A stretch of 64,000 nt of DNA from Candidatus Zixiibacteriota bacterium (GTDB lineage: Bacteria > Zixibacteria > MSB-5A5 > DSPP01): the NCBI GenBank assembly GCA_022614805.1, contig JAKEHY010000024.1, forward strand, positions 1,844-65,843. The letters are read 5' to 3'. Every line of letters starts with the position of its first letter. Position 1 is the stretch's first letter. The notes below the pieces were generated by a model. That model worked only from the letters and a program-made list of their open reading frames with translations. It was not told the origin of the DNA and did no database searches. The position numbers and the translations under genes are program-made. Of the stretch, positions 2,471 through 62,619 are shown in pieces.

Positions 2471-2497
2471 GGTGCTTCTCAAACCGTCTCTACATTT

Positions 2498-2516
2498 CCT
2501 CCCTTTGTAGGGGAGG
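2498..2516. repeat. GC-rich hairpin CCTCCC-TTTGTA-GGGGAGG (type-1 member of intergenic hairpin family)
   Basis: Lies 28 nt after the lon stop. Reverse strand reads CCTCCCCTACAAAGGGAGG, which contains the family motif CCCCTACAAA. Confidence 0.45.
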
Positions 2517-2578
2517 ACCAAGGTGGAGTTAAAATTCCCGCTCAACGCTTCTCCTTTTTTACCGATATAACTAATAGA

Positions 2579-9703: not shown

Positions 9704-11508
9704 ACGCGTTGCCTTTCGTCATCGGCGCTTTGTGCGTGATGGCCATCGCCTATCGATTTTATTCCGCTTTCATCGCCGCCAAGGTTCTGGCCCTCGACCC
9801 CAACCGCATTACTCCGGCCCATACCCTAAACGATGGGCACAACTATTACCCAACAAATAAATGGGTGCTTTTCGGCCACCACTTCGCCGCCATCTCCGGC
9901 GCCGGGCCTTTGATTGGCCCCGTTTTGGCGGCCCAGTTCGGCTTTCTCCCCGGTTTTTTGTGGCTTTTAATCGGAGTTGTTTTAGGCGGGGCGGTGCAGG
10001 ATTTTGTCATCCTCGCTGCTTCGATTCGAAGAAGCGGCCGCTCACTCGCGGAGATTGCCCGCACCGAAATTTCGCCGGTCTCCGGCCTCATTGCCGCTAT
10101 AGCCATCCTTTTCATCGTCATCATTGCGCTGGCGGGTCTCGGTCTGGCGGTCGTCAACGCTTTGCGCGAAAGCTCGTGGGGGGCTTTCACCATCGCGATG
10201 TCGATTCCGCTGGCGCTTTTCGTCGGACTGTGGATTTACCGCATCCGTCCCGGAAGAATCGTAGAGGGGAGTTTGATTGGGGTTGCCGGCCTGTTTCTTG
10301 CCGTGATTATCGGGCGCTGGATTCCGGGGTCGGCTCTGGCCCCTTATTTCACTTTTGACAAGGCTGAATTAACGTTTCTGATGGCCGCCTACGGCTTTAT
10401 CGCCTCGGTTTTGCCGGTCTGGGTGCTGCTCTGTCCGCGCGACTATCTTTCGAGCTATCTCAAAATCGGCACCATCGCCTTTCTGGCCATCGGCATAATC
10501 ATCGTCGCCCCCACCCTGCATATGCCTGCCTTTTCGGAGTTCGTAGGCGGTGGCGGGCCGATTATTCCGGGGAAGCTGTATCCTTTCGTTTTCATCACCA
10601 TCGCCTGCGGGGCGATTTCCGGCTTCCATTCGCTGGTTTCCTCCGGCACCACGCCGAAGATGATAAACAAGGAAACGGAGGCCCGGATGATTGGCTACGG
10701 GGCGATGCTGATGGAGGGGTTCGTCGGCATCACCTCCCTCGTTGCCGCCTCGGCCCTCTTTCCGGCCGATTATTTTGCCATCAACGTCCCCGCGGAAAAA
10801 TTTGGCACGCTGGGAATGGACCCGGTCAATCTCTCCACCCTGTCGGAACAGGTCGGCGAAAACGTGGCCGGGCGGCCCGGCGGGGCGGTTTCCCTGGCGG
10901 TTGGTATGGCCCAGATTTTTTCCTCCATCCCGGGAATGCGGGGGTTAATGTCGTACTGGTATCACTTCGCCATAATGTTCGAGGCGCTTTTCATTTTGAC
11001 CACCATCGACACGGGGACGAGAGTCGCCCGCTTTATTATGCAGGAGCTTTTCGGCAAGGTTTACCGGCCGTTTGCCCGGACCGACTGGTGGCCGGGGGCG
11101 ATACTCACCAGCCTGTTGGTCGTCTGCGGCTGGGGATATTTCATCCACGCCGGCACCATTTCCACCATCTGGCCGATGTTCGGGATTGCCAACCAGCTTC
11201 TGGCCGCCATCGCCCTCTGCGTCGGCACCACCGTGATTATCAACTCCGGCAAGGGCCGTTACGCCTGGATTACGCTTTTGCCTCTTTCGTTTGTCGCCAC
11301 CACCACCAGCTTTGCCGGCATCCGCTCAATTTTTGACAACTTTTTGCCTCTGGCTCAAAAGCCGGGGTTTGCTTTTCAGGGGTATTTGAACGCCGGTTTG
11401 ACCGCCATTATGATTGCCTCGGTGGTCGTCATTTTCTTCGATTCGCTGCGCCGCTGGGTCAAGCCCCTGAAGTCGGAACTTGCCTATGCCCCGGCGACGA
11501 GCAAATAA
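9691..11508 (+). CDS. cstA: carbon starvation protein A (peptide transporter CstA)
   Basis: 605 aa polytopic membrane protein. N-terminus [33 protein letters not shown] is typical of CstA. Overlaps the upstream gene by 13 nt. Confidence 0.85.
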
Positions 11509-11552: not shown

Positions 11553-12701
11553 ATGAGCAAATTCTTGAAGAAGCTTTCAGCCGCTTTATTCTTTGGCATT
11601 TTGGCAGCGCCTCCCTCCGCTTTTTGCCAGGTCGATACCGCTTGGGTGCGCTACTACAACGGGCCGGGCGACAAATCGGATGAAATGAGAGGGCTCGCTG
11701 TGGATGATAGCGGAAATGTAATTATTACCGGTTACAGCGGGACTGGATCGCCGTTCGGAGATCTCGTCACGATTAAGTACGATCGGAACGGCAACCAACT
11801 TTGGCTTCAAAATTACAATAGTGCAGTAAACACCGGGGATTATCCTGCTCTTTTTGCCATTGATAAAAAAGGGAATGTGTATGTAACGGGCGGATCATCG
11901 GCAGGAAATGATTGCTTGACGATCAAGTACGATTCCAACGGAAATCAGGTTTGGACAGCCCGCTATAACGGGCCCATAAATGGGGTGGACATTGGCTTAG
12001 GGGTCACGGTTGACGAAAGCGGGAATGTCTATGTTGCCGGGATCAGTCAGGGAGCCGTAAGAAATTGTTACTTCTACTCCGGCTTATACTATGATTTCGT
12101 GACACTAAAATACGACTCCAATGGAAACCAGCTTTGGGCTACCCGGTATGCTCCTCCGGGGGGGGATGATTATTGGAATCGCGCACATTTAATTGCAGTT
12201 GATTCATTTGGCAACATTTACGTCGGCGGATATAGTGAACATTGCCAAGGACCAACAGAATGGATAACCATCAAGTACGATTCGACCGGCGCGCAACTTT
12301 GGGTGCGATCCGATATCAAACAACCATGGAGTACTGCTGCCGGTGCTCCCGTCGACCTAAAATTGGATGCCAGCGGATATGTTTACCTGACTGGAGGAAG
12401 TCAGCAGGATAGCACAGCATATCGCAACTATACAACCGTTAAATATGACTTCCAAGGTAATATACTGTGGGCCGCCCGTTTTAACGGAAGCGCCAACAGC
12501 GATGATTATGCCACCGCCATGGCATTGGATTCACAGAACAATATTTACGTCACCGGCTTTAGTTATAGCGGAGCGGCAAACCGTGATGATATAGTTACCA
12601 TCAAATACGATTCAGACGGAAATGAGCTTTGGGCACGGAGTTACAACGGGCCGGGGAGTGGATTGGATAGAGGTTTTGATATATTCCTGGATACCGCGTG
12701 A
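11553..12701 (+). CDS. secreted SBBP beta-propeller-repeat protein, N-terminal part ending at an in-frame TGA
   Basis: Signal peptide, then at least 8 repeats of the pattern D-x-x-G-N-(I/V)-Y-V-x-G ... T-(I/L)-K-Y-D-S-N-G-N-Q-L-W (SBBP-like). Terminates at TGA 12699-12701. Confidence 0.7.
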   Translation: MSKFLKKLSAALFFGILAAPPSAFCQVDTAWVRYYNGPGDKSDEMRGLAVDDSGNVIITGYSGTGSPFGDLVTIKYDRNGNQLWLQNYNSAVNTGDYPALFAIDKKGNVYVTGGSSAGNDCLTIKYDSNGNQVWTARYNGPINGVDIGLGVTVDESGNVYVAGISQGAVRNCYFYSGLYYDFVTLKYDSNGNQLWATRYAPPGGDDYWNRAHLIAVDSFGNIYVGGYSEHCQGPTEWITIKYDSTGAQLWVRSDIKQPWSTAAGAPVDLKLDASGYVYLTGGSQQDSTAYRNYTTVKYDFQGNILWAARFNGSANSDDYATAMALDSQNNIYVTGFSYSGAANRDDIVTIKYDSDGNELWARSYNGPGSGLDRGFDIFLDTA

Positions 12702-12710
12702 AATATCTAC

Positions 12711-13127
12711 GTGGCCGGAGTAAGCTTTGGAAACGACTCAACTTACAATTATGTGATCTTAAAATACGATTCGAACGGTAATATCCTTTGGGAAAAGCGG
12801 TATGGGGGGCCAGTTTTTTACTACGCATTTCCAAAAATTTCAGTTGACCGGAACGGCAACGTATACCTTGCAGGTAGTGATATCAAAAACCAGTCGGATT
12901 TCGTGACCATCAAATATTCTCCCCTTCCCGCTTTAAAAGGCGATTTGAACTTGGACGGTGTTTTGACGATGGCGGATGTGGTTTTGATGCTCAATTTGGT
13001 TTTTAACGGCGAACTGCCCCCGGCGGCGCCAACGGCCGCGGATTTGAACTGCAACGGTTCGTTGTCGGCGGCTGACGTGGTAACCCTGCTTTATATGCTT
13101 TACGCCTCCGCTTCCCCGCCCTGCTAA
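12711..13127 (+). CDS. C-terminal continuation: SBBP repeats plus dockerin type I module
   Basis: Same reading frame as 11553-12701. Continues the repeat pattern (NIYVAGVS..ILKYDSNGNILW). Ends with two dockerin-like calcium-binding repeats: GDLNLDGVLTMADVVLMLNLVF and ADLNCNGSLSAADVVTLLYMLY. Confidence 0.65.
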   Translation: MAGVSFGNDSTYNYVILKYDSNGNILWEKRYGGPVFYYAFPKISVDRNGNVYLAGSDIKNQSDFVTIKYSPLPALKGDLNLDGVLTMADVVLMLNLVFNGELPPAAPTAADLNCNGSLSAADVVTLLYMLYASASPPC

Positions 13128-13135
13128 AAAAGAAA

Positions 13136-13164
13136 GGGGCCCGCTTGAGGACGGGCCCCTTTTG
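13136..13164 (+). terminator. rho-independent terminator
   Basis: GGGGCCCG-cttgagga-CGGGCCCC followed by TTTTG, immediately after the dockerin gene stop. Confidence 0.7.
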
Positions 13165-13369
13165 TTAGCGCTCACCGGTCCCTCGGTTATCCTCGGGATA
13201 AAGAGGCGAGCTGCTCATCGAACAGAGCTTCACAGCTCGGTATTATTTATATCGGCAAAAGGTTTTTTAGTTTTTAACTTTTTTTTACTTAAGCCGAATA
13301 GGGCAGAAGCACAAAGAGTGCCAGAAGCCAGCTGATTTTTTTCATCTTGGGTCTTTCTCTCGTTTCCTT

Positions 13370-20207: not shown

Positions 20208-20543
20208 ACGGTTAAAATATCGAGAATGGCCAAGGGGAAGTCAATTGAATTAAAACATTGGCGATTGATTCATTGAATCATTTAATCATTGGAGACAATA
20301 CCTGCAAGGGAATCGGTAGCAAACTTGGCAAAAAAGAGGGGGATTTGGTTACTGTTTTGTCAAAAAAAGAAAAAAACCTCCATACAAGAACAGGGACTAT
20401 TCGTCAAGAATCAGTAATCGGTAAAATGCCGTATTAATTCAATCGTGTCTTTGTCGGAAAAGACAAAGTATGCCCTGTATAATTTGATGGAGCTTGCGAA
20501 TCGATACGATTTTGCGGGAGAAAATGCACCTCCTGCGGCCCTT

Positions 20544-20607
20544 GTCCCCTTCGTAAGGGGGACAATAAAGGCGGGCAGGCACGGGGATCTGCCCCTACAA
20601 AAAATTG
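20544..20607. repeat. compound hairpin element: GTCCCCTT-cgt-AAGGGGGAC, spacer, GGGCAG-10nt-CTGCCC + CTACAAAAAATTG
   Basis: Between the polX stop and the truA upstream region. Confidence 0.5.
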
Positions 20608-20615
20608 TCACGAAT

Positions 20616-22346
20616 TTATTTCTTCAGCAGTTTCAAAAATGCTTCCAACGGACGGGTGTTGACAACGTCCGATTTTTGGGCCCAGCCGCGGCGGGCCTGG
20701 GCGATGCCGTACTCGAGAAAATCGAGATGGGGAATGGAATGGGCGTCCGTATCAATTGCGAGCTTGACCCCGGCGGCAACACATTTGCGGATGTATTCGT
20801 CTTTCAAATCCAGCCGGTCGGGCATTGCGTCGATTTCCAGAACGGCGCCGGTTTCCTTGGCGGCTTTGATAATGGCGTCCATATCCAAATCGTAGGCTTC
20901 CCTCTTCCCTATCAGGCGGCCGGTGGGATGGAACAAAATATCGACATTGGGATTTTTTATCGCCCGGATGATTCTTCTGGTCTGCTCTTCCCGCGGCAGG
21001 TCAAAATGGGAATGGACGGCCACGCCGACCACGTCCAGTTGGGATAGAGTTTCATCGTCCAAATCGAGCGAGCCGTCTTTCAGAATATCACACTCCGTCC
21101 CTTTGAGAATTTTTAATTTCGGACCGATTTTTTTTTGCACCTGGTCGATTTCGGCCCATTGCTTGCGGATTTTTTTCTCATCCAGGCCGCCGGTCATTGC
21201 CAGCCGCTTGGTGTGGTCGGTGATGGCGATGTATTTGTGCCTGCGCTGGATGGCGGCCTGGGCGTATGCTTCAATCGAATCGGCGCCGTCGGTCCAGTCG
21301 GTCTGGATTTGCAAATCTCCCAGGAGGTCGCCGTAGCCGATGAGTTTGGGGAGTTTGTGTTTTTTGGCCGCTTTGATTTCCCCGGTGTTTTCGCGCATTT
21401 CCGGCTCGATGTAATCCATACCCAAAGCGGCGTAGAGCTCTTCCTCCGTCTTTCCGGCAATCTGTTTGTTACCCTTGAAAAGACCGTATTCGTTCAGCTT
21501 CCACCCTTTGGCCATCGCCATTTCCCGCAGGGTGACGTTGTGGTCCTTGGAGCCGGTGAAGTAGTTCAGGGCGGCGCCGTACGATTCCGCCGGAACGACC
21601 CGCAAATCAACATCGAGACCGGATTCCAGCTTGACCGCCGACTTGGTCTCCCCGTGGGCGGAAATGTGCACCACCTCCGGCATCGAAACGAAGAAATCCA
21701 TCACCGGCTTGGGCTTTTTGGAGACGACCAGAACGTCCAAATCGCCGATGGTTTCCTTGCGGCGGCGGAGCGACCCGGCCAGAGCTATCCGTTCGACTTC
21801 CTTCAGTTCACCGAGCCGCTTTTCAATCAGCCGCGCTTTGGGCAAAACCGCTCCCAATAGGAGCCGCCCGGTTGCTTTTTTCAGAAAGTCAAGCCCCTTC
21901 AGAATGTTTTCTTCCGATTTGGCACCGAAGTGCTCCAGTTTGGCGATTTTTCCGGCCCGGGCCGCTTTTTCCAAATCGGCTATGGTCTTGATGCCCAATT
22001 CCTCGTACAGTTTTTTAATCGACTTCGGCCCCAGCCCCTCGATTTTACGCAGCCCGGAGAGGTCAACCGGGACTTTTTTCTTCAGTTCGTCGTAATATTT
22101 GAGACGGCCGGTTTGGAGCAGCTCTTCGATTTTTTTGGCGATGGAGGCGCCGATGCCGGGGATTCCTTCAAGCGCTTTCAGCCCGCCGGCTTCGTAGATT
22201 TCGGAAACCCCTTTATCCAGCTCCCCCACCGCCTGGGCCGCTTTTTCGTAGGCGCGGGGTTTGAAGGGAATCCCTTCCATTTCGAGGTATTCGCCGATTT
22301 CGGCTAAAAGACGGGATGTTTCCTGATTCGAAATTCTTTTTACCAT
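20616..22346 (-). CDS. polX: DNA polymerase X family protein with C-terminal PHP phosphoesterase domain
   Basis: 576 aa. N-terminal HhH/Pol-beta-like region (ISNQETSRLLAEIGEYLEMEG.PFKPRAYEKAA). Nucleotidyltransferase GDLDVLV motif. C-terminal PHP histidine-rich domain (IAITDHTKRL...HSHFD). Confidence 0.88.
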   Translation of the reverse strand: MVKRISNQETSRLLAEIGEYLEMEGIPFKPRAYEKAAQAVGELDKGVSEIYEAGGLKALEGIPGIGASIAKKIEELLQTGRLKYYDELKKKVPVDLSGLRKIEGLGPKSIKKLYEELGIKTIADLEKAARAGKIAKLEHFGAKSEENILKGLDFLKKATGRLLLGAVLPKARLIEKRLGELKEVERIALAGSLRRRKETIGDLDVLVVSKKPKPVMDFFVSMPEVVHISAHGETKSAVKLESGLDVDLRVVPAESYGAALNYFTGSKDHNVTLREMAMAKGWKLNEYGLFKGNKQIAGKTEEELYAALGMDYIEPEMRENTGEIKAAKKHKLPKLIGYGDLLGDLQIQTDWTDGADSIEAYAQAAIQRRHKYIAITDHTKRLAMTGGLDEKKIRKQWAEIDQVQKKIGPKLKILKGTECDILKDGSLDLDDETLSQLDVVGVAVHSHFDLPREEQTRRIIRAIKNPNVDILFHPTGRLIGKREAYDLDMDAIIKAAKETGAVLEIDAMPDRLDLKDEYIRKCVAAGVKLAIDTDAHSIPHLDFLEYGIAQARRGWAQKSDVVNTRPLEAFLKLLKK

Positions 22347-22471
22347 TGACTGAATTATAATACGGCGGAGGGAGATTGCGCCACAAGCCGCGCTTCCCCT
22401 CCTTTTTTGAGGTTAGAATGGAATGCGTTTCCCAGGGGCGGAGGCCCCTGGGCTAAGCATTGGAAGGAAAT

Positions 22472-23593
22472 TCAGGTTTTCGACGTTTTTTCGGCGCCTG
22501 AATCGGGGTCGTCGTCCAAATACTCTGCCAGGAGCCGGTGAAACTGGTGCACGCCCACTTCCCGCGTGGGGGAAAACCGGCCCGCCGGGTAGTATCTGGA
22601 CTGCAGGCCGTTGTGCACCCCCTCCACGACGAACTCATCCTCCCGTTCCACCTTGTCCAGCATCGCGCCGGCGCCGCTTCCTAATTTCGATTCATCATAC
22701 ACGTAGGAGACGAAGGAGACTTTGGTGCGGTTTGGACTCAACGGCCGCACGAGGTTCACCGACAGTCCCCAGGGATAGAAATTGAACATCATATTCGGAA
22801 AAAGCCAAAAGTAGTAGGCGGCGACGTGCCGGCCGTGGTCGATGTGCCCGGCCGGCAGCTCGAACACCTCGCTTTGGTCCGCATATCCAATCTGCAAATT
22901 GAGATGCTCATACGCCACCGTGGTGTATTGGCCGTAATCGACGACTTTGTTCAAGTCGGCATGGACGAAGGGGATGTGAAACCCTTCGAGATAATTGTCA
23001 CAGTAGAGGGCCCAGTGGCAGTTGACGAGGTAATCCTTGCTTAAACTGTCGCTGCGTCTGAACTGATGCAGCGGAAGAAAACCGACCCGCTCGTTCATAA
23101 TGCTGAAGACTTCGGTTACGTCAAAACGGGGCTCCAGACCGACAAACAGGTGCGGCCCCCATTGGGCGAAATGAAACGGACGCAGGTCGTCGGATGGGCG
23201 GGGGAAATTTTCGGCCGTTTTGAACTCGGGCATTGATTTGAACTTTCCGTCCAGGTCAAATGAGCGGCCGTGGTAGCCGCAGACCAGGGTTTTCGGTTTC
23301 CCCGGATTCTGGACGATGATGTTGCCCCGGTGCGTGCAGACATTTGTCAGGCAGCGACCCACCCCTTCCCGGTCCCGGGTTAGCACCATCGGCTCGGAGA
23401 GGAATTTATCCAAGAGCACGAAAGGATAGACAGTATTTCCGGGAGGGAGAAGGCTGTCGTCGCCGACCCACTGCCAGGTTTTGGCGAACACGCGCTCTTT
23501 CAGTTCCTCAAAGACAGCGGGGTCCCGGTAGAAGGAGGCCGGCAGCGTTTCCGCTTTTTTTATGTCCGGGTCTATGCTGTAGCGCCGTTGCAT
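22472..23593 (-). CDS. Rieske [2Fe-2S] non-heme iron oxygenase alpha subunit
   Basis: 373 aa. Rieske motif CTHRG...CGYHG. Downstream mononuclear Fe motif EGFHIPFVHAD. Confidence 0.8.
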   Translation of the reverse strand: MQRRYSIDPDIKKAETLPASFYRDPAVFEELKERVFAKTWQWVGDDSLLPPGNTVYPFVLLDKFLSEPMVLTRDREGVGRCLTNVCTHRGNIIVQNPGKPKTLVCGYHGRSFDLDGKFKSMPEFKTAENFPRPSDDLRPFHFAQWGPHLFVGLEPRFDVTEVFSIMNERVGFLPLHQFRRSDSLSKDYLVNCHWALYCDNYLEGFHIPFVHADLNKVVDYGQYTTVAYEHLNLQIGYADQSEVFELPAGHIDHGRHVAAYYFWLFPNMMFNFYPWGLSVNLVRPLSPNRTKVSFVSYVYDESKLGSGAGAMLDKVEREDEFVVEGVHNGLQSRYYPAGRFSPTREVGVHQFHRLLAEYLDDDPDSGAEKTSKT

Positions 23594-23594
23594 A

Positions 23595-24950
23595 TCAACC
23601 GGACCGTTTCGCCGCTTCGCCGGAAGGCCCCGGGTCGGCCATTTTCATCCAGACGTAGAAGGGAATCCCGGCCACGAGAAGAATGAACCCCCAGAACACG
23701 ACCTCTTGGCCGCTCCCCACCATAACCCAGAGGGAAAAACCGAACGCCAGGCTGGCGAGTGTGAGTTTCCCGCCCAGCTCGCCCTCCCTCAACTTGGCCG
23801 ACTGTAGCACATAGCTCGCCGCCGAAAAAAAATAGGGGGTCAAGACCGAAAGCGTGGAGAGGGTTATCATAAAAGTGAAGGCGTCGACCAATGTTTTTGA
23901 GTAGTTCAAGGCCAAAAGCACCGAGGCCAGGATGCTCGAAATAACTATCCCCAAGGCGGGGGAGCCGTTTCGATTGAGCCGGCCGAAAACTTTCGGAAAG
24001 AGTTTGTCGCGGGCGGCGGACATCGGAATCTGTCCCTGTATCAGTATCCATCCGTTCAAGGCGCCGAAAGTCGAGATTACCGCTCCGGCTGCAATCACGT
24101 ACTGGGCGGAAGCTCCCCAGAAGACCGCCGCCGCATCGGCAAACGGGGCGTTTGACTTCGCCAGTGTTTCCCCCGGAAGCAGGCCCATTACCGCCACCGA
24201 GCCGAGCAAATATACGAAGACGGCGACTACGGTGCCGGCGATGGTCGATTTTCTAATCGTCACCGCGGCATCCTTGATTTTGGAGCCCGGTATGGTGGCG
24301 CTCTCCATTCCGAGGAAGGCAAAGAAGGTCAGCATCACGGTCGTCGTCAAAACGGAAAGGTTCGCCCCCCCGCTCGTGTTGAAAGCCGGAAAGTTATCGA
24401 GCTTCATATAGAAAATTCCCACGCCCCCAATCAGGAGGAGCGGAACGAGCTTCAAGATAGTGGTAATTAGTTGAACGGAGCCGACCGTCCGGATTTTTTT
24501 CGAATTCGTCCAGGTAAGAAGCCAGATGACGGACAAGCCGGTGAAAATTGCAGCCAGCGGGCTTTTTGAAAGGATGGGAATGAAAACGGTAAGGTAACTC
24601 ACCAAAGCGACGACAATGGCGGCGTTCGTGCACCAGATGGAAATCCAGTAGCTCCAGGCGACCAAGTAGGCGGGGAATTCCCCCAGACTGATTTTCGTGT
24701 AGGCGTACGGTCCCCCGGTGGTCCGGGGAGCCAGACGGCCCAGTTCCCCAAATACAAGCGCCATCAGGATGGCGCCAACCGCGGAGCAAAGCCAGGCCAA
24801 AAGGCTGATTCCGCCGTAGGCGGCCAGAGTTGCGGGCAAAAGGAATATGCCGGAGCCGATGATATTCCCCACGACAAGCGCGGTGCTCGACCAAAACCCC
24901 AATTTCGATTGGTGGTCTGGCTCCGATTGGAGGTCAACTTTTGGGTCCAC
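23595..24950 (-). CDS. APC-superfamily amino acid/amine permease
   Basis: 451 aa with about 12 TM helices. N-terminal GNIIGSGIFLLP-type consensus. Stop is 1 nt from the Rieske oxygenase start. Confidence 0.8.
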   Translation of the reverse strand: MDPKVDLQSEPDHQSKLGFWSSTALVVGNIIGSGIFLLPATLAAYGGISLLAWLCSAVGAILMALVFGELGRLAPRTTGGPYAYTKISLGEFPAYLVAWSYWISIWCTNAAIVVALVSYLTVFIPILSKSPLAAIFTGLSVIWLLTWTNSKKIRTVGSVQLITTILKLVPLLLIGGVGIFYMKLDNFPAFNTSGGANLSVLTTTVMLTFFAFLGMESATIPGSKIKDAAVTIRKSTIAGTVVAVFVYLLGSVAVMGLLPGETLAKSNAPFADAAAVFWGASAQYVIAAGAVISTFGALNGWILIQGQIPMSAARDKLFPKVFGRLNRNGSPALGIVISSILASVLLALNYSKTLVDAFTFMITLSTLSVLTPYFFSAASYVLQSAKLREGELGGKLTLASLAFGFSLWVMVGSGQEVVFWGFILLVAGIPFYVWMKMADPGPSGEAAKRSG

Positions 24951-24994
24951 GCCCGGCTAACTTACGAAATTTCAGTCAAATTCCGAACACCTGC

Positions 24995-26563
24995 CTACAT
25001 CCACAAGTTTCTATCCAGGGTGCGATACTGAATCGCCTCGGATAGATGGGATTCCTTGACGTCGGGGCTGGCTTCCAAATCGGCAATGGTGCGGGCCACT
25101 TTTAGGATACGGTCGTAAGCGCGAGCGGAGAGTCCGAGCTTGGACATCGCCGCTCGAAGCAGTTCCTGACCGGCCGACGTTATCGAGCAGTATTTTTTCA
25201 AATGCCGAGTTTGCATATGGGCGTTGGCGAAGATTTTTTTCTCCTTGGCAAACCGCTCGGTCTGAAGCCTCCGGGCGGCGCTCACCCGTTCCCGGATTTT
25301 GGAAGAGGGTTCGGCTCCATCGGGAGTGGAAAGTTCTTTGAACTTCACCGCCGGCACTTCGATGTGGATATCGATTCGGTCCAGAAGGGGGCCGGAGATT
25401 TTGGAGACGTAGCGCTGGATTTCCGCCGGGGAACAATGACACCGGCCCGAAGGGTCGCCGAAAAATCCACAGGGGCAGGGGTTCATTGCCGAAACCAGTT
25501 GAAATTGGGAGGGATAGGTCAAAGAAATTTTGGCGCGGGAGATGGTCACCCGGCCGTCCTCCATCGGCTGGCGCAAAACTTCTAACACATCTTTTTTGAA
25601 CTCCGGCATTTCGTCCAAAAACAGAACGCCGTGGTGCGCCAACGAAACTTCCCCCGGCCGGGGGACCGTCCCGCCGCCGATTAGCCCGGCGTCCGAAATG
25701 GTGTGATGCGGGCTGCGGAAGGGGCGGGTGGCCAGAAGCGGAACGCCGGGCTCCAGCTGGCCGGCGACGGAATGAATTTTGGTGGTTTCCAAAGCCTCCT
25801 CAATGGTCAAAGGGGGCAGAATGGTCGGCAGCCGGCGGGAGAGCATCGTTTTGCCCGAGCCGGGAGGGCCGATTAAGAGAATGTTATGCGAACCGGCCGC
25901 CGCCACCTCGAGGGAACGTTTGACCGCCTCCTGCCCTTTCACTTCCGAAAAGTCGAGGGGATAATCAAGCGCTTTTTCGAAAACCGAATGGATATCCAGA
26001 CTGAAGGGCTCGAGGACCTGCTCCCCTTCCAGAAAACCGGCCGCCTCCCGCAGGGAGGAAATCGGATAAACCGGCAGGCCGGTGGCCATCGCCGCCTCGG
26101 CGGCGTTTTCTTTCGGCACCAAAAGGACTTTGTTGTCGTTTTGCTTCAGGGCCAAAGCAATCGGCAGAACCCCAGGGATGGGTCGCACGCTGCCGTCCAG
26201 CGAAAGCTCCCCCACCATCACCACTTCCGAAAAATCCTCCCGCCCCAGCTGCCCGGTGGCGGCGAGGATGCCCACGGCCATCGGCAAATCGAAGGCGCTC
26301 CCCTCTTTTTTGATATCCGCCGGGGCCAGATTGATGGTCACTTTTTGGCGGGGGAAGGAGTAGCCGGAATTTTTTACGGCGGAGGCGACCCTTTCTTTGG
26401 CTTCCCGCACGGCTCCTTCCGGCAGGCCGACGGTGGCGAAGGCGGGAAGCCCGCTGGTGATGTCGGCTTCCACTTCCACCAGGTAGGCTTCGATGCCCAA
26501 AAGGGAGGAGGAATAAACCTTGGCCAGTCGGTTTCTCATAGGCAAACAAGGTAATGAGGCCAA
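24995..26563 (-). CDS. yifB: YifB/ComM family Mg-chelatase-like AAA+ ATPase
   Basis: 522 aa. N-terminal Lon-protease-like domain, then AAA+ region with Walker A GPPGSGKT and a C-terminal Mg-chelatase ChlI-like region. Confidence 0.88.
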
Positions 26564-26646
26564 AAGGGACTGTCAAACAGGTTTTGACCCTTCCCCCAAT
26601 AAGAATAGGGATTAGTGATTAGTGAAAACCAATACACCCCTATGGT

Positions 26647-26717
26647 CCCCCTTAAATACAGGGGGACAGGATTGGGCGGGTTTGAAACCCGCCCCTACAA
26701 GAACAAAGGACATCGCT
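26647..26717. repeat. compound hairpin element: CCCCCT-taaatac-AGGGGG, spacer ACAGGATT, GGGCGGG-tttgaaa-CCCGCCC + CTACAAGAACAAAGGAC
   Basis: In the divergent region between yifB and the Gly-rich secreted protein gene. Confidence 0.5.
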
Positions 26718-26871
26718 TAGAAATTGGCTTGACGGAGCCAAAGCGGGGCTTATCTTAAAATAAAGTTCTGGATGAAACGGCGGCGGTTTCGTGGGGGAAA
26801 CCGGCGCCCTCGCCCACCTTCCAGAAATGAAACTGGTGAAAATACAACCATATCAAAAAAGGAGCTGTGCA

Positions 26872-28341
26872 ATGAAACGCTTCAAGGTGCTTTGGGGAGT
26901 ATTTGTTCTATTGGCCTCATCAACCGCTGGAGCACTTTTTCCGAGCGGAGTTGAGGGAGCCATTCCCAGATTAATCAATTTTCAAGGAGTTTTGCGGGAT
27001 GGCAGCGGCAATCCAGTGGCGGACGGGTCGTATTCGGTAACTTTCAAAATCTACGACGCTCCGACTGTCGGGACCGTGCTCTGGACGGAAACTCAACCGG
27101 TAACCACGCTCGGCGGCTCGTTCAATGTTCTTCTGGGAGCCACTAACGCCGTGCCGGATTCTGCGTTCAATGGAGCCAACCGCTATTTGGGAATCGCGGT
27201 AGCTTCCGACCCGGAAATGTCGCCGAGGTTTCAACTCGTTTCGGTCGGCTACGCCTTCCGCGTCAATTCGGTGGATGGGGCTTTGGGAGGAACCATTAGT
27301 GGAGACATTAATATCATGGGAAAAGCTACAATTGGTTCCGGGAACAGCAACGCTGGTTCATTTGCATTTGTCGCGGGTACGAGGAACACTGTAACCGGAG
27401 CTGGTTCCACTATAGGCGGAGGAGACACTAATACAGTGACTCGCGATGGTGCCACCATAGGCGGCGGGAAAGCAAACGTAATAAGCGGCCAAGCTGCTAC
27501 GATTGCCGGAGGTCATTCTAATATCGCAAGTGGAGAAAGATCAACAATAGGTGGTGGGGGTTTTAACCGAGCCCGTGGGCATCTCTCTGTGGTTAGTGGC
27601 GGTGGCGATATCTATTCTATTGCTGATTCTAATTCAGCGCTCGGAGATTATTCTGCTGTTGGAGGCGGGAAAGGTAACATCGCAGAGGGGTTTGGCGCAA
27701 AAGTCGGGGGCGGTTCCATCAACAAGGCCACCGGAGGTTTTTCATTTGTGGGAGGGGGAATTAACAATTTGGCCAATGGCTCGCAGGCCACTATCGGCGG
27801 GGGGCAAACCAATATCGCCAGCGCCCCTTTTGCAACCGTTCCCGGAGGATGTGGAAACCAAGCCGGCGGTAGTTTTACAACCGTGGGTGGCGGATTCAAC
27901 AATGGAGCTGGAAATTTTTATTCCACCGTCGCCGGGGGGGACCAGGACACCGCCACCGGAAACTGGTCGGCCATTCCGGGCGGACAATTCAACAAAGCCG
28001 CCGGAAGCTATTCTTTTGCCGCCGGGCGGAGGGCCAAGGCGCTGCACCATGGTTCCTTTGTCTGGGCGGACAGCACGGACGCCGATTTTTCTTCGACGGC
28101 CCCCAACCAGTTTATAATTCGGGCTTCGGGAGGGTTTGGAATTGGAACGGCGAACCCGCAAGGGGCTTTGGATATGAGCAACGCCAACGGCGCTTTCATC
28201 GCCCCCCGAATGACCAATAACCAGAGAAATGCAATGACGCCCATCGACGGGATGGTTATTTACAACACGGAGACCCGGCAATTCAATTTTTGCGAAGACG
28301 GCCATTGGGTGACGAAGCAATCAAAGAGGGCGGACCGGTAG
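26872..28341 (+). CDS. secreted glycine-rich beta-helical repeat protein (tail-fibre / adhesin-head-like)
   Basis: RBS AAAAAAGGAG precedes ATG 26872, then a signal peptide. More than 12 degenerate repeats of the form (A/S)TIGGG-x-xN-x-A-xG. Distinct C-terminal about 80 aa domain (RMTNNQRNAMTPIDGMVIYNTETRQFNFCEDGHWV). Confidence 0.55.
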   Translation: MKRFKVLWGVFVLLASSTAGALFPSGVEGAIPRLINFQGVLRDGSGNPVADGSYSVTFKIYDAPTVGTVLWTETQPVTTLGGSFNVLLGATNAVPDSAFNGANRYLGIAVASDPEMSPRFQLVSVGYAFRVNSVDGALGGTISGDINIMGKATIGSGNSNAGSFAFVAGTRNTVTGAGSTIGGGDTNTVTRDGATIGGGKANVISGQAATIAGGHSNIASGERSTIGGGGFNRARGHLSVVSGGGDIYSIADSNSALGDYSAVGGGKGNIAEGFGAKVGGGSINKATGGFSFVGGGINNLANGSQATIGGGQTNIASAPFATVPGGCGNQAGGSFTTVGGGFNNGAGNFYSTVAGGDQDTATGNWSAIPGGQFNKAAGSYSFAAGRRAKALHHGSFVWADSTDADFSSTAPNQFIIRASGGFGIGTANPQGALDMSNANGAFIAPRMTNNQRNAMTPIDGMVIYNTETRQFNFCEDGHWVTKQSKRADR

Positions 28342-28356
28342 AACCTCACCCCTAAC

Positions 28357-28480
28357 CCCTCTCCTTACGAAGGAGAGGGAGGGCACAACAGTGTTGTGCC
28401 CCTACAAAAGAACGGAAATAAATAAGGGGCAACCATCCCTCGACTCCGCTCGGGACAGGCGGGGAGTTGCCCCTACGAGT
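28357..28480. repeat. compound hairpin element, three hairpins: CCCTCTCCTT-acg-AAGGAGAGGG; GGGCACAAC-agt-GTTGTGCCC + CTACAAAAGAAC; GGGGCAAC-32nt-GTTGCCCC + TACGAG
   Basis: Convergent intergenic region between the Gly-rich protein gene and the amidohydrolase gene. Confidence 0.55.
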
Positions 28481-29844
28481 TATTTTGTTTCTTCCCCTTC
28501 CCCGGCGCGCATCAGACCGTTGGTGGGGGCTTTCTGTTCATACTTGGCCTTGTACTTCTCGTACAACTGCGTATGGCGGGAAGTCAAATCGACTTTCTTC
28601 CCCTGAATGAATTCCAGCTCCACGTTGGAGGTGATTTCCAAGGGGTCGCCGGTGGTAACGATTAGAGTGGCATCCTTGCCGACCTCGAGAGAACCAATCC
28701 GGTCGGCCACGCCGAAAATTTCCGCCGGGAAAAGGGTGACGGTCTTCAAGGCGGCCTCTTTCGGCAGGCCATAGGCCGCCGCCATTGCGGCGTGGTAGGG
28801 CAGGTTGCGCTCGTTGGAGGCCCAGCCGCCGCCGTAAATGGCAAACTTCACCCCGGCTTCATATAGCTTTCCCGGCAAAGCATACGGCAAATCGTAATCT
28901 TCATAACGGCGGAAAGGGGTGCGCAGGGTGCCGCCGACCAGTACCGGAATGTTTTTGGCTTTCAAAAGTTCCGCCGCCCGCCAGGCATCGTAGCCGCCGC
29001 CGATGATAATTTTGATTTTTTCCTCCTCCGCCCAGGCCACGGCGGCCTGAATCTGCTGGAGATTTCCGGCCATCACCAAAACCGGCAGTTTTCCTTCAAA
29101 AACCGGAATCATCGCCTCCCAGCGCATATCGGTGGGAAGGTTTTTTCCGTTTAGAGCGGCCGCTTTTTTGGCCGTCCAGTAGGCGCGGGCATCCTTGAAG
29201 GCCTGGTGCAATTCCTTGAGGTTGCGCTCCCGGTTTTTCTTCTGCTCCTCTTCGGATTCGGTCACCCACCAGCCCCGCTGGGGAGTCATTTGCGGCCAGT
29301 TGACCAGAAGGGCCGCTGGAGCTTGGAAAGTCATCTCTTCCCAAGTCCAGCCATCCAGATTGATGACGGCGGCGGTGCCGGAGATGATGCCTCCCTCCGG
29401 AGAGGTTATAGCGGTGGTCACTCCGTTGGCCCGGGCGACCGGAATCAGCTCCGATTCCGGATTGATGGCCACCTCGGCCCGGACGTTGGGGTTGATGCGG
29501 CCTGTTTCGGTGACATCCTTGGTGGCCCGAACTTCCTCGATTTCGGTAAGCCCCAAATTGGTAAAAGCGTCGAAAAGCCCGGGATAGATGTGCTTCCCGG
29601 CGACGTCGATAACTTCCGTCCCGGCGGGCAGCGAAACGCCCCGACCGATGGCGGTGATTTTTCCCTTATCGAAAAGAATTGCCGCACCAGCGAGTTCCCC
29701 GCCAGTGACGGTATGAACGGTGCCGCCGACCAAGGCAACCGGCCGGCTTTGGGGGGGAGCGGGACGCTGGTCAAAGCCCCAAACAGATACTGCCAAAATG
29801 AACCCGAGTATCATCCCCACTCCAAATCCAAATATCTTTTTCAT
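28480..29844 (-). CDS. secreted amidohydrolase-family metal-dependent hydrolase
   Basis: RBS GGAGGAG precedes ATG 29844 (MKKIFGF...), then a signal peptide. Amidohydrolase N-terminal signature GGTVHTV..GKITAIG..IDVAGKHIYPGLFD. Start overlaps the upstream gene stop (ATGA). Confidence 0.75.
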   Translation of the reverse strand: MKKIFGFGVGMILGFILAVSVWGFDQRPAPPQSRPVALVGGTVHTVTGGELAGAAILFDKGKITAIGRGVSLPAGTEVIDVAGKHIYPGLFDAFTNLGLTEIEEVRATKDVTETGRINPNVRAEVAINPESELIPVARANGVTTAITSPEGGIISGTAAVINLDGWTWEEMTFQAPAALLVNWPQMTPQRGWWVTESEEEQKKNRERNLKELHQAFKDARAYWTAKKAAALNGKNLPTDMRWEAMIPVFEGKLPVLVMAGNLQQIQAAVAWAEEEKIKIIIGGGYDAWRAAELLKAKNIPVLVGGTLRTPFRRYEDYDLPYALPGKLYEAGVKFAIYGGGWASNERNLPYHAAMAAAYGLPKEAALKTVTLFPAEIFGVADRIGSLEVGKDATLIVTTGDPLEITSNVELEFIQGKKVDLTSRHTQLYEKYKAKYEQKAPTNGLMRAGEGEETK

Positions 29845-40038: not shown

Positions 40039-40088
40039 GAGGGCGAACCTATTTTGAGCCTCCCGAGTTCGCCCTCTTTTTTTTATTT
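40039..40088 (+). terminator. rho-independent terminator downstream of RND pump
   Basis: GAGGGCGAAC - 18 nt loop - GTTCGCCCTC, followed by TTTTTTTTATTT. Nested inside an outer inverted repeat TTTCACCCC (40030-40038) ... GGGGTGAAA (40091-40099). Confidence 0.6.
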
Positions 40089-42855: not shown

Positions 42856-44412
42856 CTACTGCACTCTCTTTAACTCCACCCGGCGGTTTTGGGCCCGGCC
42901 GGACACCGTCTTGTTGTCCGCTATCGGGGTGGTTTCGCCGTATCCCTTGACGAACAGGTTTTCCGCCTTTACGCCCTTTTCCACCAGGTAGTTCCGGACG
43001 GCGGTCGCCCGCTGCTCGGAAAGATTCAGGTTATGGGCGTCAGAGCCGGTGGCGTCGGTATGCCCGCCGACTTCCACCTTCACCTCCGGATGGGCCATCA
43101 GGCTGATGGCCACCTCGTCCAGAACCGTTTTGGAAGCATCGAGGAGGACCGCCTTGCCGGTTTGGAAATTAACCCCTTTCAAAACCAGCGGCTTTTCGGG
43201 AGTCGGAATGTATTCGACCTTCGGCAACACGCAGCCGACCGCATTCACTTCGCTTCCCGCCGGCGTGTTCGGGCACTGGTCGACTCCGTCACAAACGCCG
43301 TCGCCGTCTGAATCCGTCTGGCAACCGGAAGCATCCACGGTGCAGCCTCTGGGGGTATCCGCGCATTTATCCAGCCCGTCGCAAACCCCGTCGCCGTCGG
43401 CATCGGTCGGGCAACCGGCGGCGTCCACCGTGCATCCCTTGGGGGTGTTGTCGCACTTGTCCGTTCCATCCGAAACGCCGTCTCCATCAGAATCGGTCGG
43501 GCATCCCTTGCTGTCCACTTTGACCCCTTTGGGGGAATTGGCGCAGGCATCGATGCCGTCGCAGACCCCGTCGCCGTCCGAATCAACCGGACAACCGTCG
43601 GCATCCACCCGGCAGCCAACCCTCGTGCCGGGGCATTTATCCTTTTTGTCGGAAACGCCGTCCAAGTCCTCGTCCCCGACCTTGCCGCCAAAGTAGAAGG
43701 AAAAGCCGGTGTACACTTCCGCCGTGAGCTTCGGCAAATCCAGTTCGTTGGCTCCCGTGCCAACTATATCCTTGTCATCCTTGAAATCGGTCAGAAAGTG
43801 GGAAAGGTAGCGCGCGCGCCCTCCCAGCTCCCAGGAGAAATTCTCACTGATGAAATATTCCACTCCGAGCCCCAGCATTCCATACAACTCCTGATCTTTC
43901 AGTTCATACGGATTGCCGGCCTTGTCGGTGTCGGGGACACCTGTGCCGTTCAAGAGGGAGGTGTCGGACATCAGGGTGTTCCCGTCCTTGTCCCTCCACT
44001 TCCACAAGTAAATCCCGGCCCCGATGGAAACATAGGGGGAAAGCTTTTTCTCCGGCATAAAGTGGTACTCGGCCAAAAGCCCGCCGCTGAAGGCACGCTG
44101 CTGGGGCCCGTCGGCGAGATTGTCAAAAGTAAAGCCGGCCCCGTCCGCGAACTTAGAAGTATCCGCCAGCCAGTTCATCCGGCCGGTTCCTTCCACGCCG
44201 ACCACCCAGTTTTTGGTAAGTCCGTACTTCAGGCTGGCGTCCACCACCCCGCCAATCGTCCAGTAGTCGGAATGGTCGGTCAGCCCCAGCTTGTAGCCCC
44301 CTCCATGGACGGATAAGCCCATCTTTCCCTTCAAGTCCACGCCGAAGGCGGCGGTGGAAACGAAAGAAAGAAAAACGAGAGCCAAAAGTGATGTCAAAAC
44401 GGTTCTTTTCAT
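42856..44412 (-). CDS. OmpA-family outer membrane protein with thrombospondin type 3 calcium-binding repeats
   Basis: Start at MKRTVL (ATG 44412, RBS GGAGAGAG). N-terminal beta-barrel region. More than 5 TSP3-like repeats: DSDGDGVCDG, DADGDGVCDGLDKC. C-terminal OmpA peptidoglycan-binding domain (NLNLSEQRATAVRNYLVEKGV..RRVEL). Confidence 0.8.
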   Translation of the reverse strand: MKRTVLTSLLALVFLSFVSTAAFGVDLKGKMGLSVHGGGYKLGLTDHSDYWTIGGVVDASLKYGLTKNWVVGVEGTGRMNWLADTSKFADGAGFTFDNLADGPQQRAFSGGLLAEYHFMPEKKLSPYVSIGAGIYLWKWRDKDGNTLMSDTSLLNGTGVPDTDKAGNPYELKDQELYGMLGLGVEYFISENFSWELGGRARYLSHFLTDFKDDKDIVGTGANELDLPKLTAEVYTGFSFYFGGKVGDEDLDGVSDKKDKCPGTRVGCRVDADGCPVDSDGDGVCDGIDACANSPKGVKVDSKGCPTDSDGDGVSDGTDKCDNTPKGCTVDAAGCPTDADGDGVCDGLDKCADTPRGCTVDASGCQTDSDGDGVCDGVDQCPNTPAGSEVNAVGCVLPKVEYIPTPEKPLVLKGVNFQTGKAVLLDASKTVLDEVAISLMAHPEVKVEVGGHTDATGSDAHNLNLSEQRATAVRNYLVEKGVKAENLFVKGYGETTPIADNKTVSGRAQNRRVELKRVQ

Positions 44413-46147: not shown

Positions 46148-46816
46148 ATGCCCAGAAAAGCTAAAAAGAAACCGAAAAAAACCGCCCGGAAAAAAATGAC
46201 CCGCGCCAGGAGGCCGAAGAAAGTAAGGGCCAAAGCCAAAAAAACGGTAAAAAGGGCCAAGCGGGTTGTCAAAAGAGTCAAAAAGGCCGCTCCCCGGCGG
46301 ACCCCAGCCCCCAAGCCGATGGCGGTTCCCACCCCTCCGACCGAACCGACTCCGGTTTTGATGGAGGGGATGCGGGCGCCCGATTTCCGGCTGAAGGCCT
46401 ATCCGGACGGGGAGTATGCCCTGTCCGATTTCCGCGGCAAAAAAGTGGTGCTCTATTTTTATCCCAAAGACGACACCCCCGGCTGCACGATGGAGGCCTG
46501 TTCCTTTCGGGATACCAAATCGGAATGGGAAGGAGCCGGCGCAACCGTCCTGGGAGTATCCAACGACGACTGGTCTTCCCACCAGAACTTTGCCCAGAAG
46601 TACAACCTGAACTTCACCCTTCTTTCCGACCCGGACGCCTCTGTTTCCAAAAGCTACGGCGTGTACAAGGAAAAGAATATGTACGGCAAGAAGCTCTGGG
46701 GGATTGAGCGCACCACCTTCATCATCGACCCGGAGGGGAAAATCGCCAAAATCTTCCCCCGGGTGCAGGTGGACGGCCACTCATCCGAGGTTCTGGAAAC
46801 GCTGCGCAGGATATAG
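46148..46816 (+). CDS. bcp: Bcp-type peroxiredoxin with 60-aa lysine/arginine-rich N-terminal extension
   Basis: 222 aa. Residues 1-60 are about 45% K/R (KAKKKPKKTARKK..KVRAKAKKTVKRAKRVVKRVKK). C-terminal AhpC/TSA fold with PGCTMEAC peroxidatic/resolving Cys pair. Confidence 0.85.
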   Translation: MPRKAKKKPKKTARKKMTRARRPKKVRAKAKKTVKRAKRVVKRVKKAAPRRTPAPKPMAVPTPPTEPTPVLMEGMRAPDFRLKAYPDGEYALSDFRGKKVVLYFYPKDDTPGCTMEACSFRDTKSEWEGAGATVLGVSNDDWSSHQNFAQKYNLNFTLLSDPDASVSKSYGVYKEKNMYGKKLWGIERTTFIIDPEGKIAKIFPRVQVDGHSSEVLETLRRI

Positions 46817-46836
46817 TTCACATTACCAACAAAAAA

Positions 46837-46863
46837 GCCCCCGCAGCAAGGGGGCTTTTTTTG
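46837..46863 (+). terminator. rho-independent terminator after bcp
   Basis: GCCCCC-gcagcaa-GGGGGC followed by TTTTTTTG. Confidence 0.75.
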
Positions 46864-46877
46864 TTGGCTTTTTTCTC

Positions 46878-55097: not shown

Positions 55098-55115
55098 TTT
55101 GTTCAAGGCACCAAC

Positions 55116-55146
55116 AAAAAAGCCCCGCCAAAGCGGGGCTTTTTTG
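55116..55146. terminator. bidirectional rho-independent terminator
   Basis: AAAAA-AGCCCCGC-caaa-GCGGGGCT-TTTTTG between convergent cupredoxin and surA-like genes. Confidence 0.75.
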
Positions 55147-55170
55147 TTTTAAAAGGGCAAGTTTTTTAGT

Positions 55171-61827: not shown

Positions 61828-62529
61828 ATGATGAAGAAAAAAAACTGGACGGGTGCGGTTTTTTTGACGGTTCTTCTGGCCACTTTGGGCCTTGCCAAAA
61901 CGAGCAAGAAAACCGAAACCCCAAACCCGATTTCCCGTATGATTGCCGCTTTGGGGGGGGACAAATTCTTAAATCTATCCGCTTTTCAGCTCTCCGGCCG
62001 TGGGTTTTTGGTTGGCAAAAACCCGGTCAAAATAGATTTCGCCCAGCGGGGGGGGAAAATGCGCTCCCAGATAGAGACGAACTTTTGGAGCTCCACCGAA
62101 GTTTTCGACGGGGTCTCCGGCTGGCGCCGCTTCGGCGCCGAAAAACCGTTCAAGCTTTCCCAGAGCCCGCTGGCCCTTTTTGCCCGAAACGGCCTTTTGC
62201 GCCTGCAGCAAATCGAGCGGAGTGTTTTTGAACTGGAAAAAGACACTGTAATAGACAAAACTTCCTGTTATTGGATAAAAAGTCTCGATTCCACCTTCGG
62301 CGAACTCTGGATTTTTTTGGACCAAAAGACCTTCCGCCCCAAGGAGCTCTATTCTCCGGCCAATGGAATCACCGCCGGTCTTGCGGCCTACGAGTTGATG
62401 GAAGAGGTTTATTTTCCCTACATGATAACCGTCCGCCGGGGGGTGCAAAGCTATTTGGAATTGAAATTGGACACCGTGGCGGTCAACCCGACCCTGCCCG
62501 ACTCCTTTTTCACCTTCCCCGAAGAGTAG
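61828..62529 (+). CDS. secreted hypothetical protein (possibly LolA-like fold)
   Basis: 233 aa, signal peptide MMKKKNWTGAVFLTVLLATLGLA. No catalytic motif. Confidence 0.45.
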   Translation: MMKKKNWTGAVFLTVLLATLGLAKTSKKTETPNPISRMIAALGGDKFLNLSAFQLSGRGFLVGKNPVKIDFAQRGGKMRSQIETNFWSSTEVFDGVSGWRRFGAEKPFKLSQSPLALFARNGLLRLQQIERSVFELEKDTVIDKTSCYWIKSLDSTFGELWIFLDQKTFRPKELYSPANGITAGLAAYELMEEVYFPYMITVRRGVQSYLELKLDTVAVNPTLPDSFFTFPEE

Positions 62530-62584
62530 GGGCAATTCATGAATTGCCCCTACCATTTTCCCCCTTCCCGCGTCGGGAAGGGGG
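62529..62584. repeat. compound hairpin element: 22-bp perfect palindrome GGGGCAATTCATGAATTGCCCC + TACCATTTT, then CCCCCTTCCCG-cgt-CGGGAAGGGGG
   Basis: Starts at the last base of the 61828-62529 gene stop. Lies upstream of hflX. Confidence 0.55.
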
Positions 62585-62619
62585 TAAGGTCTCCTTCCCG
62601 GGGTAGTGCGGGGTGTACG

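Follow-up and report, generated by a model that had tools for sequence, protein, structure and literature searches.

This locus raises the question of what kind of element is represented by the GC-rich hairpins that follow one another between two convergent genes and recur at other intergenic sites of the window, i.e. of the whole 64-kb stretch of DNA that was analysed. A first-pass annotation had sorted them into two types, type 1 with a C-rich arm facing a G-rich one and type 2 with a stem based on GGGC or GGGG, and had taken the fact that the stems differ among copies while staying complementary as a mark of selection on RNA structure rather than of a spread mobile repeat. Our analysis leads to another answer: the cluster is very probably made up of small interspersed palindromic DNA repeats of two kinds, both described before and present here in a Zixibacteria chromosome, and individual copies may take on a host role. 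Judged by their sequence, the type-2 hairpins belong to the GTAG-tagged REP elements, of the kind associated with subclass 2.4 TnpA_REP or group 4 RAYT; the type-1 hairpins are a family distinct from them.

The hairpins first listed do exist where they had been placed, as found both by sequence reading of the five loci and by a hairpin census (Table 1). All of them lie between long ORFs, and the neighbouring genes are ordinary housekeeping genes (Lon, ComM-like Mg-chelatase, PolX, TruA, HflX, amidohydrolases). Type-2 REPs number 5 per 64 kb in this window and are intergenic throughout; all five have a GGGC/GCCC or GGGG/CCCC foot, stems of 6-10 bp and GTAG at the foot, on the minus strand or on both strands. 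The pattern GCCCCTAC occurs in 7 copies where 1.74 are expected, a number that none of 100 shuffles of the window attained; the seventh copy, at 36647, lies without a hairpin inside a coding ORF and is taken as chance. Pyrimidine-arm/purine-arm hairpins were found 5 times in the window for 0.27 expected from Markov simulations. A partial motif reported at 20380-20398 came down to one shared 10-mer, not clearly above chance.

Table 1. Hairpin repeats of the 64-kb window; family assignments are by sequence match
Feature	Position	Strand	Remarks
Type-2 REP, single-foot: GTAG-GGGCACAAC-act-GTTGTGCCC	28381..28405	-	9-bp perfect stem, GGGC foot, GTAG tag
Type-2 REP-like GTAG hairpin: GGGGCAAC...GTTGCCCC, 32-nt loop	28426..28476	-	between convergent genes
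Type-2 REP, single-foot: GTAGGGGCGGGTTTCAAACCCGCCC	26674..26698	-	from hairpin census and sequence reading
Type-2 REP, single-foot, short stem: GTAG-GGGCAG-atccccgtgc-CTGCCC	20573..20598	-	
Type-2 REP, double-foot: GTAGGGGCAATTCATGAATTGCCCCTAC	62526..62553	.	GTAG...CTAC, tag on both sides
Type-1 hairpin with third segment, matching BoxC/PIT/'TM' type A: CCCTCTCC-ttcgtaa-GGAGAGGG-gtta-GGGGTGAGG	28345..28379	-	
Type-1 hairpin: GTCCCCCT-gtattta-AGGGGGAC, then cata-GGGGTGT	26634..26667 (hairpin 26645-26667)	-	
Type-1 hairpin: TTGTCCCC-ttcgtaag-GGGGACAA	20542..20565	.	adjoins untagged side of the 20573-20598 REP
Type-1 hairpin: CCCCCTTCCCG-cgt-CGGGAAGGGGG	62560..62584	.	alternative stem possible at 62574-62600
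Type-1 hairpin, solitary: TCCTCCC-tttgtag-GGGAGGA + cca-AGGTGGAG	2497..2531 (hairpin 2497-2517)	+	

Some of the copies have features of their own. The REP at 20573-20598 begins 17 nt past the stop of a PolX-like gene (20616-22346, minus strand) and looks like a decayed copy. ORF 61828-62529 ends on the double-foot REP: the TAG within the GTAG foot of this repeat (62526-62529) serves as its stop codon, and the repeat therefore supplies, or overlaps, the end of the gene. The loop of 28426-28476 contains, at about 28437-28460, a nested third small repeat, CCCTCGACTCCGCTCGGGACAGG; its pattern, CCCTCG(A/G)CT(C/T)CGCTCGG(G/A)ACAGG, is shared by window positions 28437-28460 and by positions 9777-9800, in an intergenic repeat cluster, of the related Zixibacteria locus L164. 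All four single-foot REPs (20573-28476) carry GTAG on the minus strand, which with n = 4 is not significant; such a strand bias, if real, would be in keeping with transposition that takes place at the replication fork, on single-stranded DNA. Other repeated or palindromic sequences of the window are of more usual kinds: 46816-46865 and 55101-55150 are canonical bidirectional terminators (A-run, GCCCC...GGGGC, T-run) with 72% identity over 50 nt, further T-tract terminators are found at 13133-13166 and 40039-40084, and the segments 43244-43617 and 11760-12791 hold four tandem copies of a 90-nt repeat and six dispersed copies of a 45-nt one, which lie within long-ORF spans and are therefore presumably repeated protein domains.

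Read on the minus strand, a type-2 hairpin is made of GTAG, GGGC, a variable stem, a loop and a complementary arm ending in GCCC. The anatomy of GTAG-tagged REPs is set out in passages of Di Nocera et al. 2013 (PMC3733652), and passages of Quentin et al. 2018 (PMC6006769) link REPs of such a kind to subclass 2.4 TnpA_REP/RAYT; there, the REPs of this subclass are described as long, with three G-C pairs at the base of the stem and with 'double foot' forms, as occurring in frame inside tnpAREP, and as having a patchy distribution over several phyla. The head GTAGGGGC is present 105 times in Table S1 of the latter paper, the passages of that table considered here being all subclass 2.4 rows. Within the same passages, the double-foot REP consensus of Chlorobium chlorochromatii (ABB27827.1) is identical to window 62526-62553, and the Chloroflexus aurantiacus consensus, GTAGGGGCGGGTTCTAAACCCGCCC, differs from window 26674-26698 in the loop alone. 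The annotation had thus been right in kind when it listed a REP-like element among its candidates, but the element is not novel, since GTAGGGGC and the exact 28-mer already stand in that part of Table S1 (PMC6006769). Matching of full-text literature on 8-mers and hairpin strings returned unrelated papers only.

How far the stems recur and how diverse they are was judged by exact-pattern scans and by a census anchored on RAYT genes. Exact matches to the 25-mer GGGCGGGTTTSAAACCCGCCCCTAC of 26674-26698 were found in 43 stretches of IMG/VR and, among species-representative (GTDB) genomes, in at least 120 stretches. More than 15 phyla are represented among the matches listed, where the carriers include Chloroflexota, Binatia, Nitrospirota, Thermodesulfobacteriota, Myxococcota, Rubrobacter, Omnitrophota, Planctomycetota, Zixibacteria, Acidobacteriota, three Proteobacteria classes, Clostridia, Deinococcus and others. 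Other stems co-occur on the contigs that carry this 25-mer, and a second one, GGGGCAATTCATGAATTGCCCCTAC (62529-62553), is found unchanged in 10 IMG/VR stretches. The annotation had presented the copies as covarying rather than as one repeated sequence, and had named beforehand identical stems elsewhere as the finding that would speak against it; identical stems in unrelated phyla are what the scans returned. The stems of the window are members of recurrent sub-families, not unique covarying solutions. For the GGGCACAAC...GTTGTGCCC stem (28381-28405) there was no match in IMG/VR, and this copy could therefore have diverged in place.

The copies from other genomes also define where the repeat ends. 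In 261 of them, conservation stops exactly at GTAG and CTAC and the flanks are random; 90 of the 261 are double-footed. The conserved 3′ flank noted earlier is the foot of the stem followed by the CTAC tag (GTAG on the opposite strand). An A-run after CTAC is real, but in this lineage only: it follows 10 of 14 copies at Zixibacteria loci, as against 34 of 394 (∼9%) elsewhere, and to this extent the CTACAA flank of the annotation holds good. The longer flank CTACAAGAAC did not hold as a conserved feature, with 4 occurrences for 1.77 expected, a number reached in 10 of 100 shuffles, and nothing beyond CTAC in the 261 copies elsewhere. Partial and nested REP forms are common (L043, L037, L013 and other loci), an example being GGGGCGGGTTTG-GTAC-GGGCGGGTTTGAAACCCGCCCC, and the tag of the second side is GTAC instead of GTAG in 24 of the 261 copies. 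Such GTAC and nested forms hint at the joining or duplication of copies.

A link with RAYT genes came from a six-frame motif search (NHxH ... WQRxYYEH ... YIxxNP) of fetched loci near such hairpins, which found three ORFs with this series of motifs (loci L116, L152 and L058). A profile scan was applied to the L116 and L152 ORFs, the L058 ORF, which has an in-frame stop, being left out; both match Pfam Y1_Tnp (34 bits for a cut-off of 23) and NCBIfam REP_Tyr_transpos, the REP-associated tyrosine transposase (E = 7e-22 and 7e-19). The RAYT from L152 had no match among PDB sequences. In L058 the RAYT-like gene, at about 4450-5000, has its in-frame stop past the WQRSYYEHVIRN motif while its flanks keep GTAG hairpins; it is probably a pseudogene or the result of a sequencing error. 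All three genes have GTAGGGGC hairpins on their flanks and one or two more in frame between the HuH and W motifs, where they encode peptides such as RAGLKPAPT. An alignment of the three proteins recovered 80 metagenomic RAYT loci (the IMG/VR scan gave only 3 loci). At these 80 loci tagged hairpins occur at 2.9/kb in the gene, 2.5/kb in the near flanks and 0.17/kb farther out, so that GTAGGGGC hairpins are about 15-fold enriched in and beside the RAYT gene. Tagged hairpins are found at 72 of the 80, with heads that are nearly all GTAGGGGC, and there are 93 distinct stem arms in total, with at least two different stems at 53 of the 80. A fixed GTAG-GGGC foot with freely varying stems is hence usual at RAYT loci, and 'different but complementary stems', varied around a single RAYT gene, are therefore built into the REP family and are not compensatory RNA evolution. 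The 64-kb window itself holds no RAYT gene.

The type-1 hairpins have a relationship that had been missed, namely to BoxC/PIT-type elements (cf. PMC4666352). Holder et al. 2015 (PMC4666352) describe an E. coli 'TM' motif, CCCTCTCCCTTGAGGGAGAGGGTTAGGGTGAGGGT, which is the older BoxC/PIT element (Bachellier; Hoyne and Maher); the motif is intergenic, more than 260 genomes are reported to carry it, and it has been associated with local rearrangement. The layout at 28345-28379, which unites the type-1 hairpin of the annotation (28357-28379) with its CTCACCCC box, is CCCTCTCC - loop - GGAGAGGG - TTA - GGGGTGAGG and matches the E. coli type A motifs of Table 1 in PMC4666352; by its sequence, this segment would be a BoxC/PIT/'TM' triplex-type motif. 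The three-part layout of such motifs (pyrimidine arm, loop, purine arm, linker, G/T-rich mirror segment) is present in full at 28345-28379 and, by inspection, nearly so, with other arms, at 26634-26667 and 2497-2531. At 2497-2531, 6 of 7 positions fit a mirror third segment, again by inspection; that of 26634-26667 reads as one G short and is perfect in L164. At 20542-20565 and 62560-62584 a convincing third segment was looked for by reading and none was seen, and these two are therefore BoxC-like in the hairpin alone. Elsewhere, 80 type-1 hairpins were counted in 1.31 Mb of other repeat-rich genomes, many with a CCCTCACCCC box. No enrichment was found at RAYT loci, with 5 in 277 kb; type-1 hairpins, common elsewhere yet not enriched at RAYT genes, are therefore a separate family.

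Comparison with the syntenic loci of related Zixibacteria (L164, L166, L169, L171, L172 and L173) shows what happens to both families at orthologous sites. In the gap between the ComM and tail-fibre-like genes, the window and L164 share a type-1 hairpin and the REP GGGCGGGTTT(G/A)AAACCCGCCC-CTAC, i.e. the REP of 26674-26698, and L164 has additional repeats; in L166 the REP is absent and the gap is empty of repeats, the adjoining promoter-proximal sequence being conserved. The type-1 unit of 26634-26667 recurs three times in L164 (1349, 9703 and 11645). In the convergent-gene gap, the window holds BoxC, REP(GGGCACAAC...) and a REP with a long loop; L164 holds BoxC, REP(GGGCGGGTTTTAAACCCGCCC), two type-1 hairpins and a double-foot REP; L171 and L172 hold a pair of REPs besides a BoxC that has decayed; in L166 there is a single hairpin, whose tag has decayed, and L169 and L173 have a plain hairpin only. 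The slot of 28381-28405 is occupied by GGGCGGGTTTTAAACCCGCCC in L164, L171 and L166, different 21-nt hairpins thus standing beside BoxC with identical junctions. Presence or absence and replacement at orthologous sites are gain, loss and exchange as expected of mobile or recombining repeats, and they run against the claim of RNA-level selection. For single copies, slow compensatory change at a conserved site could also have occurred, since these relatives diverge by 16-25% in neighbouring protein sequence. Two genes for DNA methyltransferases and one HNH gene also lie upstream of ComM in L164 (1736-5674); they are missing from that position in the window.

The interpretation of the hairpins as a small structured RNA or cis-acting RNA motif family, with stems that co-vary under selection on RNA secondary structure, had some appeal: the hairpins are thermodynamically strong (for 28340-28495, z is -5.1 for the plus and -4.1 for the minus strand), pairing is kept while stems vary among copies, and the orthologous hairpin of L173, GGGGTAACC/GGTTGCCCC, has a G-T position that pairs only at the RNA level. 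Nevertheless, the same stems occur letter for letter in many phyla, conservation does not extend past the 4-nt tags, neither a promoter nor another motif being present, orthologous sites show gain, loss and exchange of copies, hairpins cluster on and within RAYT genes, and the settings are mixed (3′ region of a gene, between convergent genes, upstream of divergent genes). The comparison with Rfam that the annotation had proposed gave no match to the hairpins: with the Rfam 15 covariance models, only tRNA attained the gathering score in the whole window, and nothing appeared at E ≤ 1 in 20300-28600. Given stems identical across phyla, RAYT clustering and no Rfam match, we rejected this interpretation as highly improbable; the case for a new family of structured RNAs finds no support, both repeat families having been described before in bacteria. 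Another possibility is that the hairpins are primarily terminators, or stabilisers of mRNA 3′ ends, kept by the host, and that their resemblance to REPs is secondary. The best case for it is 28426-28476. The annotation held that no hairpin is followed by a U-tract in either orientation; this is so for the others, whereas here, on the minus strand, a T-run (TTATTTATTT) comes directly after the hairpin, giving the only intrinsic-terminator layout (GC-rich hairpin and U-run) among them, and A-rich and T-rich runs frame the hairpin as is typical of bidirectional terminators. In all relatives the first hairpin past the amidohydrolase stop is GGGG(C/T)(G)AAC(C)...GTT(C)GCCCC, then a T-run (TTTT in the orthologues); all five keep hairpin and T-run at this site, with or without GTAG, the tag being present in the window, L164 and L171 and not in L169 and L173. 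This copy is probably an intrinsic bidirectional terminator, as predicted for both convergent genes. Moreover, three of four loci lie just 3′ of a gene, with GTAG first on the sense strand of that gene, and E. coli REPs stabilise upstream mRNA according to passages of PMC3733652. But no T-run stands downstream of the four other REPs or of any type-1 hairpin, the T-run of this Zixibacteria lineage is upstream of GTAG, the 26634-26698 cluster is located between divergent gene starts, ordinary T-tract terminators are found elsewhere in the genome (46816-46865, 55101-55150 and 40039-40084), and earlier work cited in passages of PMC4666352 had PIT/BoxC motifs without terminator activity. As an account of the whole set, host-kept terminators are thus unlikely.

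The close association of the two families deserves attention by itself. Of the five type-2 hairpins, four have a type-1 neighbour no more than 10 nt away, which none of 20000 permutations over intergenic positions matched, and the order of each pair in the window is constant: GTAG, type-2 hairpin, short spacer, type-1 hairpin. One explanation could be a single composite mobile element (MITE- or BIME-like), multiplied as a whole from one master copy, for which both the non-random adjacency and the fixed order would argue. However, the four pairs have neither hairpin sequences nor spacers in common, type-1 hairpins also occur alone (2497 and many in other genomes) and are not enriched at RAYT loci, and in L164 a type-1 unit comes after a REP on its tagged side as well; a composite copied as a unit is very unlikely and, for want of shared sequence in the four pairs, was rejected. 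The abutment and the A-run after CTAC could instead reflect an insertion-site preference. It is the untagged side of the REP that adjoins another hairpin in 3 of 3 single-foot cases in the window, and among 267 single-foot REPs (the three window copies included) a hairpin neighbour was found 24 times on the untagged and 6 times on the tagged side, about half of the 24 cases being inverted REP pairs. The T-run before the tag, TTTTGTAGGGGC (CTACAAAA on the other strand), is seen at window 20595-20602, 26695-26702 and 28402-28409, at L164 9752, 11623 and 11766 and at L171 11374-11420, and may be a lineage-specific insertion target or part of a longer repeat unit. We may speculate that REPs are inserted, and later exchanged, at 'landing pads', namely the foot of pre-existing triplex-prone pyrimidine/purine hairpins, and T-runs. 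The adjacency of four of the five REPs to type-1 hairpins in pairs that share no sequence, the 24-to-6 bias in other genomes, the lineage-specific junction TTTTGTAG and the swap of one 21-nt hairpin for another in the same slot all fit such a scheme, which is still doubtful; if it were true, BoxC-type motifs would direct the placement of REPs by a RAYT-type enzyme. At the least, the close juxtaposition of REPs and triplex-type hairpins gives a small, testable lead on REP insertion sites.

To return to the preferred explanation, two families of DNA repeat, it can be given a tentative mechanism. The subclass 2.4 TnpA_REP, or group 4 RAYT, is a domesticated HUH tyrosine (Y1) transposase, and we know of no experimental demonstration of REP movement by enzymes of this subclass. 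By analogy with E. coli TnpA_REP and with IS200/IS605, the enzyme would recognise both the hairpin, as single-stranded DNA, and its GTAG guide, and would cut and rejoin beside the hairpin, whereby copies would spread, be deleted or be replaced. Constraint would then be limited to the foot and to the ability to form a hairpin, and we propose that it is because of this that stems diverge among sub-families yet remain self-complementary. It would act at the level of the DNA hairpin and not of RNA: if the enzyme reads a single-stranded hairpin and its tag, complementarity would be maintained without RNA involvement. Individual copies could still acquire a host role, as is probably the case for 28426-28476, at whose site each relative has the terminator of the amidohydrolase gene. 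For the source genome we infer RAYT-mediated mobility, and terminator activity likewise.

The practical value of this outcome lies in annotation. Short GC-rich palindromes are very common in the genomes of uncultivated bacteria, where they yield spurious ORFs and mimic covarying RNA structures, and naming them as REP or BoxC-type repeats guards against mistaken 'new RNA' annotations. Zixibacteria now come within the documented range of subclass 2.4-type REPs, and one 25-mer unchanged across more than 15 phyla, among the matches listed, bears on how such elements spread.

Among known systems, the closest to the type-2 hairpins is that of the subclass 2.4 TnpA_REP of Quentin et al. 2018 (PMC6006769), which corresponds to the group 4 RAYTs of Bertels. 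In common with its REPs, the window hairpins have GTAG at the foot and a GGGC/GCCC stem base, units of 20-29 nt with a double-foot form, extragenic positions that are mostly downstream of genes, and several stem types per genome. They differ in that the passages of PMC6006769 and PMC3733652 considered here do not name the host phylum, Zixibacteria, that no RAYT gene lies within the 64 kb, that a T-run precedes GTAG in this Zixibacteria lineage and that the REPs adjoin pyrimidine/purine hairpins. They also lack inverted pairs, or REPINs: none was found in the window, where 28381-28405 and 28426-28476, the sole adjacent REPs, have the same orientation, whereas inverted REP pairs are present in other genomes sampled. 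With the REP/BIME system of E. coli and its TnpA_REP (subclass 2.2; PDB 4ER8), the elements share a GTAG guide with a GC-rich hairpin, a single domesticated Y1 enzyme and the roles proposed for REPs in mRNA stabilisation, termination and protein binding; but the E. coli REPs are longer, have bulged stems and are arranged in BIMEs, and the E. coli enzyme belongs to another subclass, with DHLH/YIHYNP in place of NHxH/YIxNNP motifs. As for the BoxC/PIT/'TM' intrastrand triplex motif, 28345-28379 has the same order of segments, whereas the other type-1 hairpins have different arms (GTCCCCCT, TCCTCCC, CCCCCTTCCCG) and two of them no clear third segment. Lastly, the cyanobacterial small dispersed repeats of Elhai et al. 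2008 are reportedly palindromic, about 21-27 nt long, untagged and without a known enzyme, and are said to appear at new sites and to nest in one another; the loop of 28426-28476 offers a similar case of nesting.
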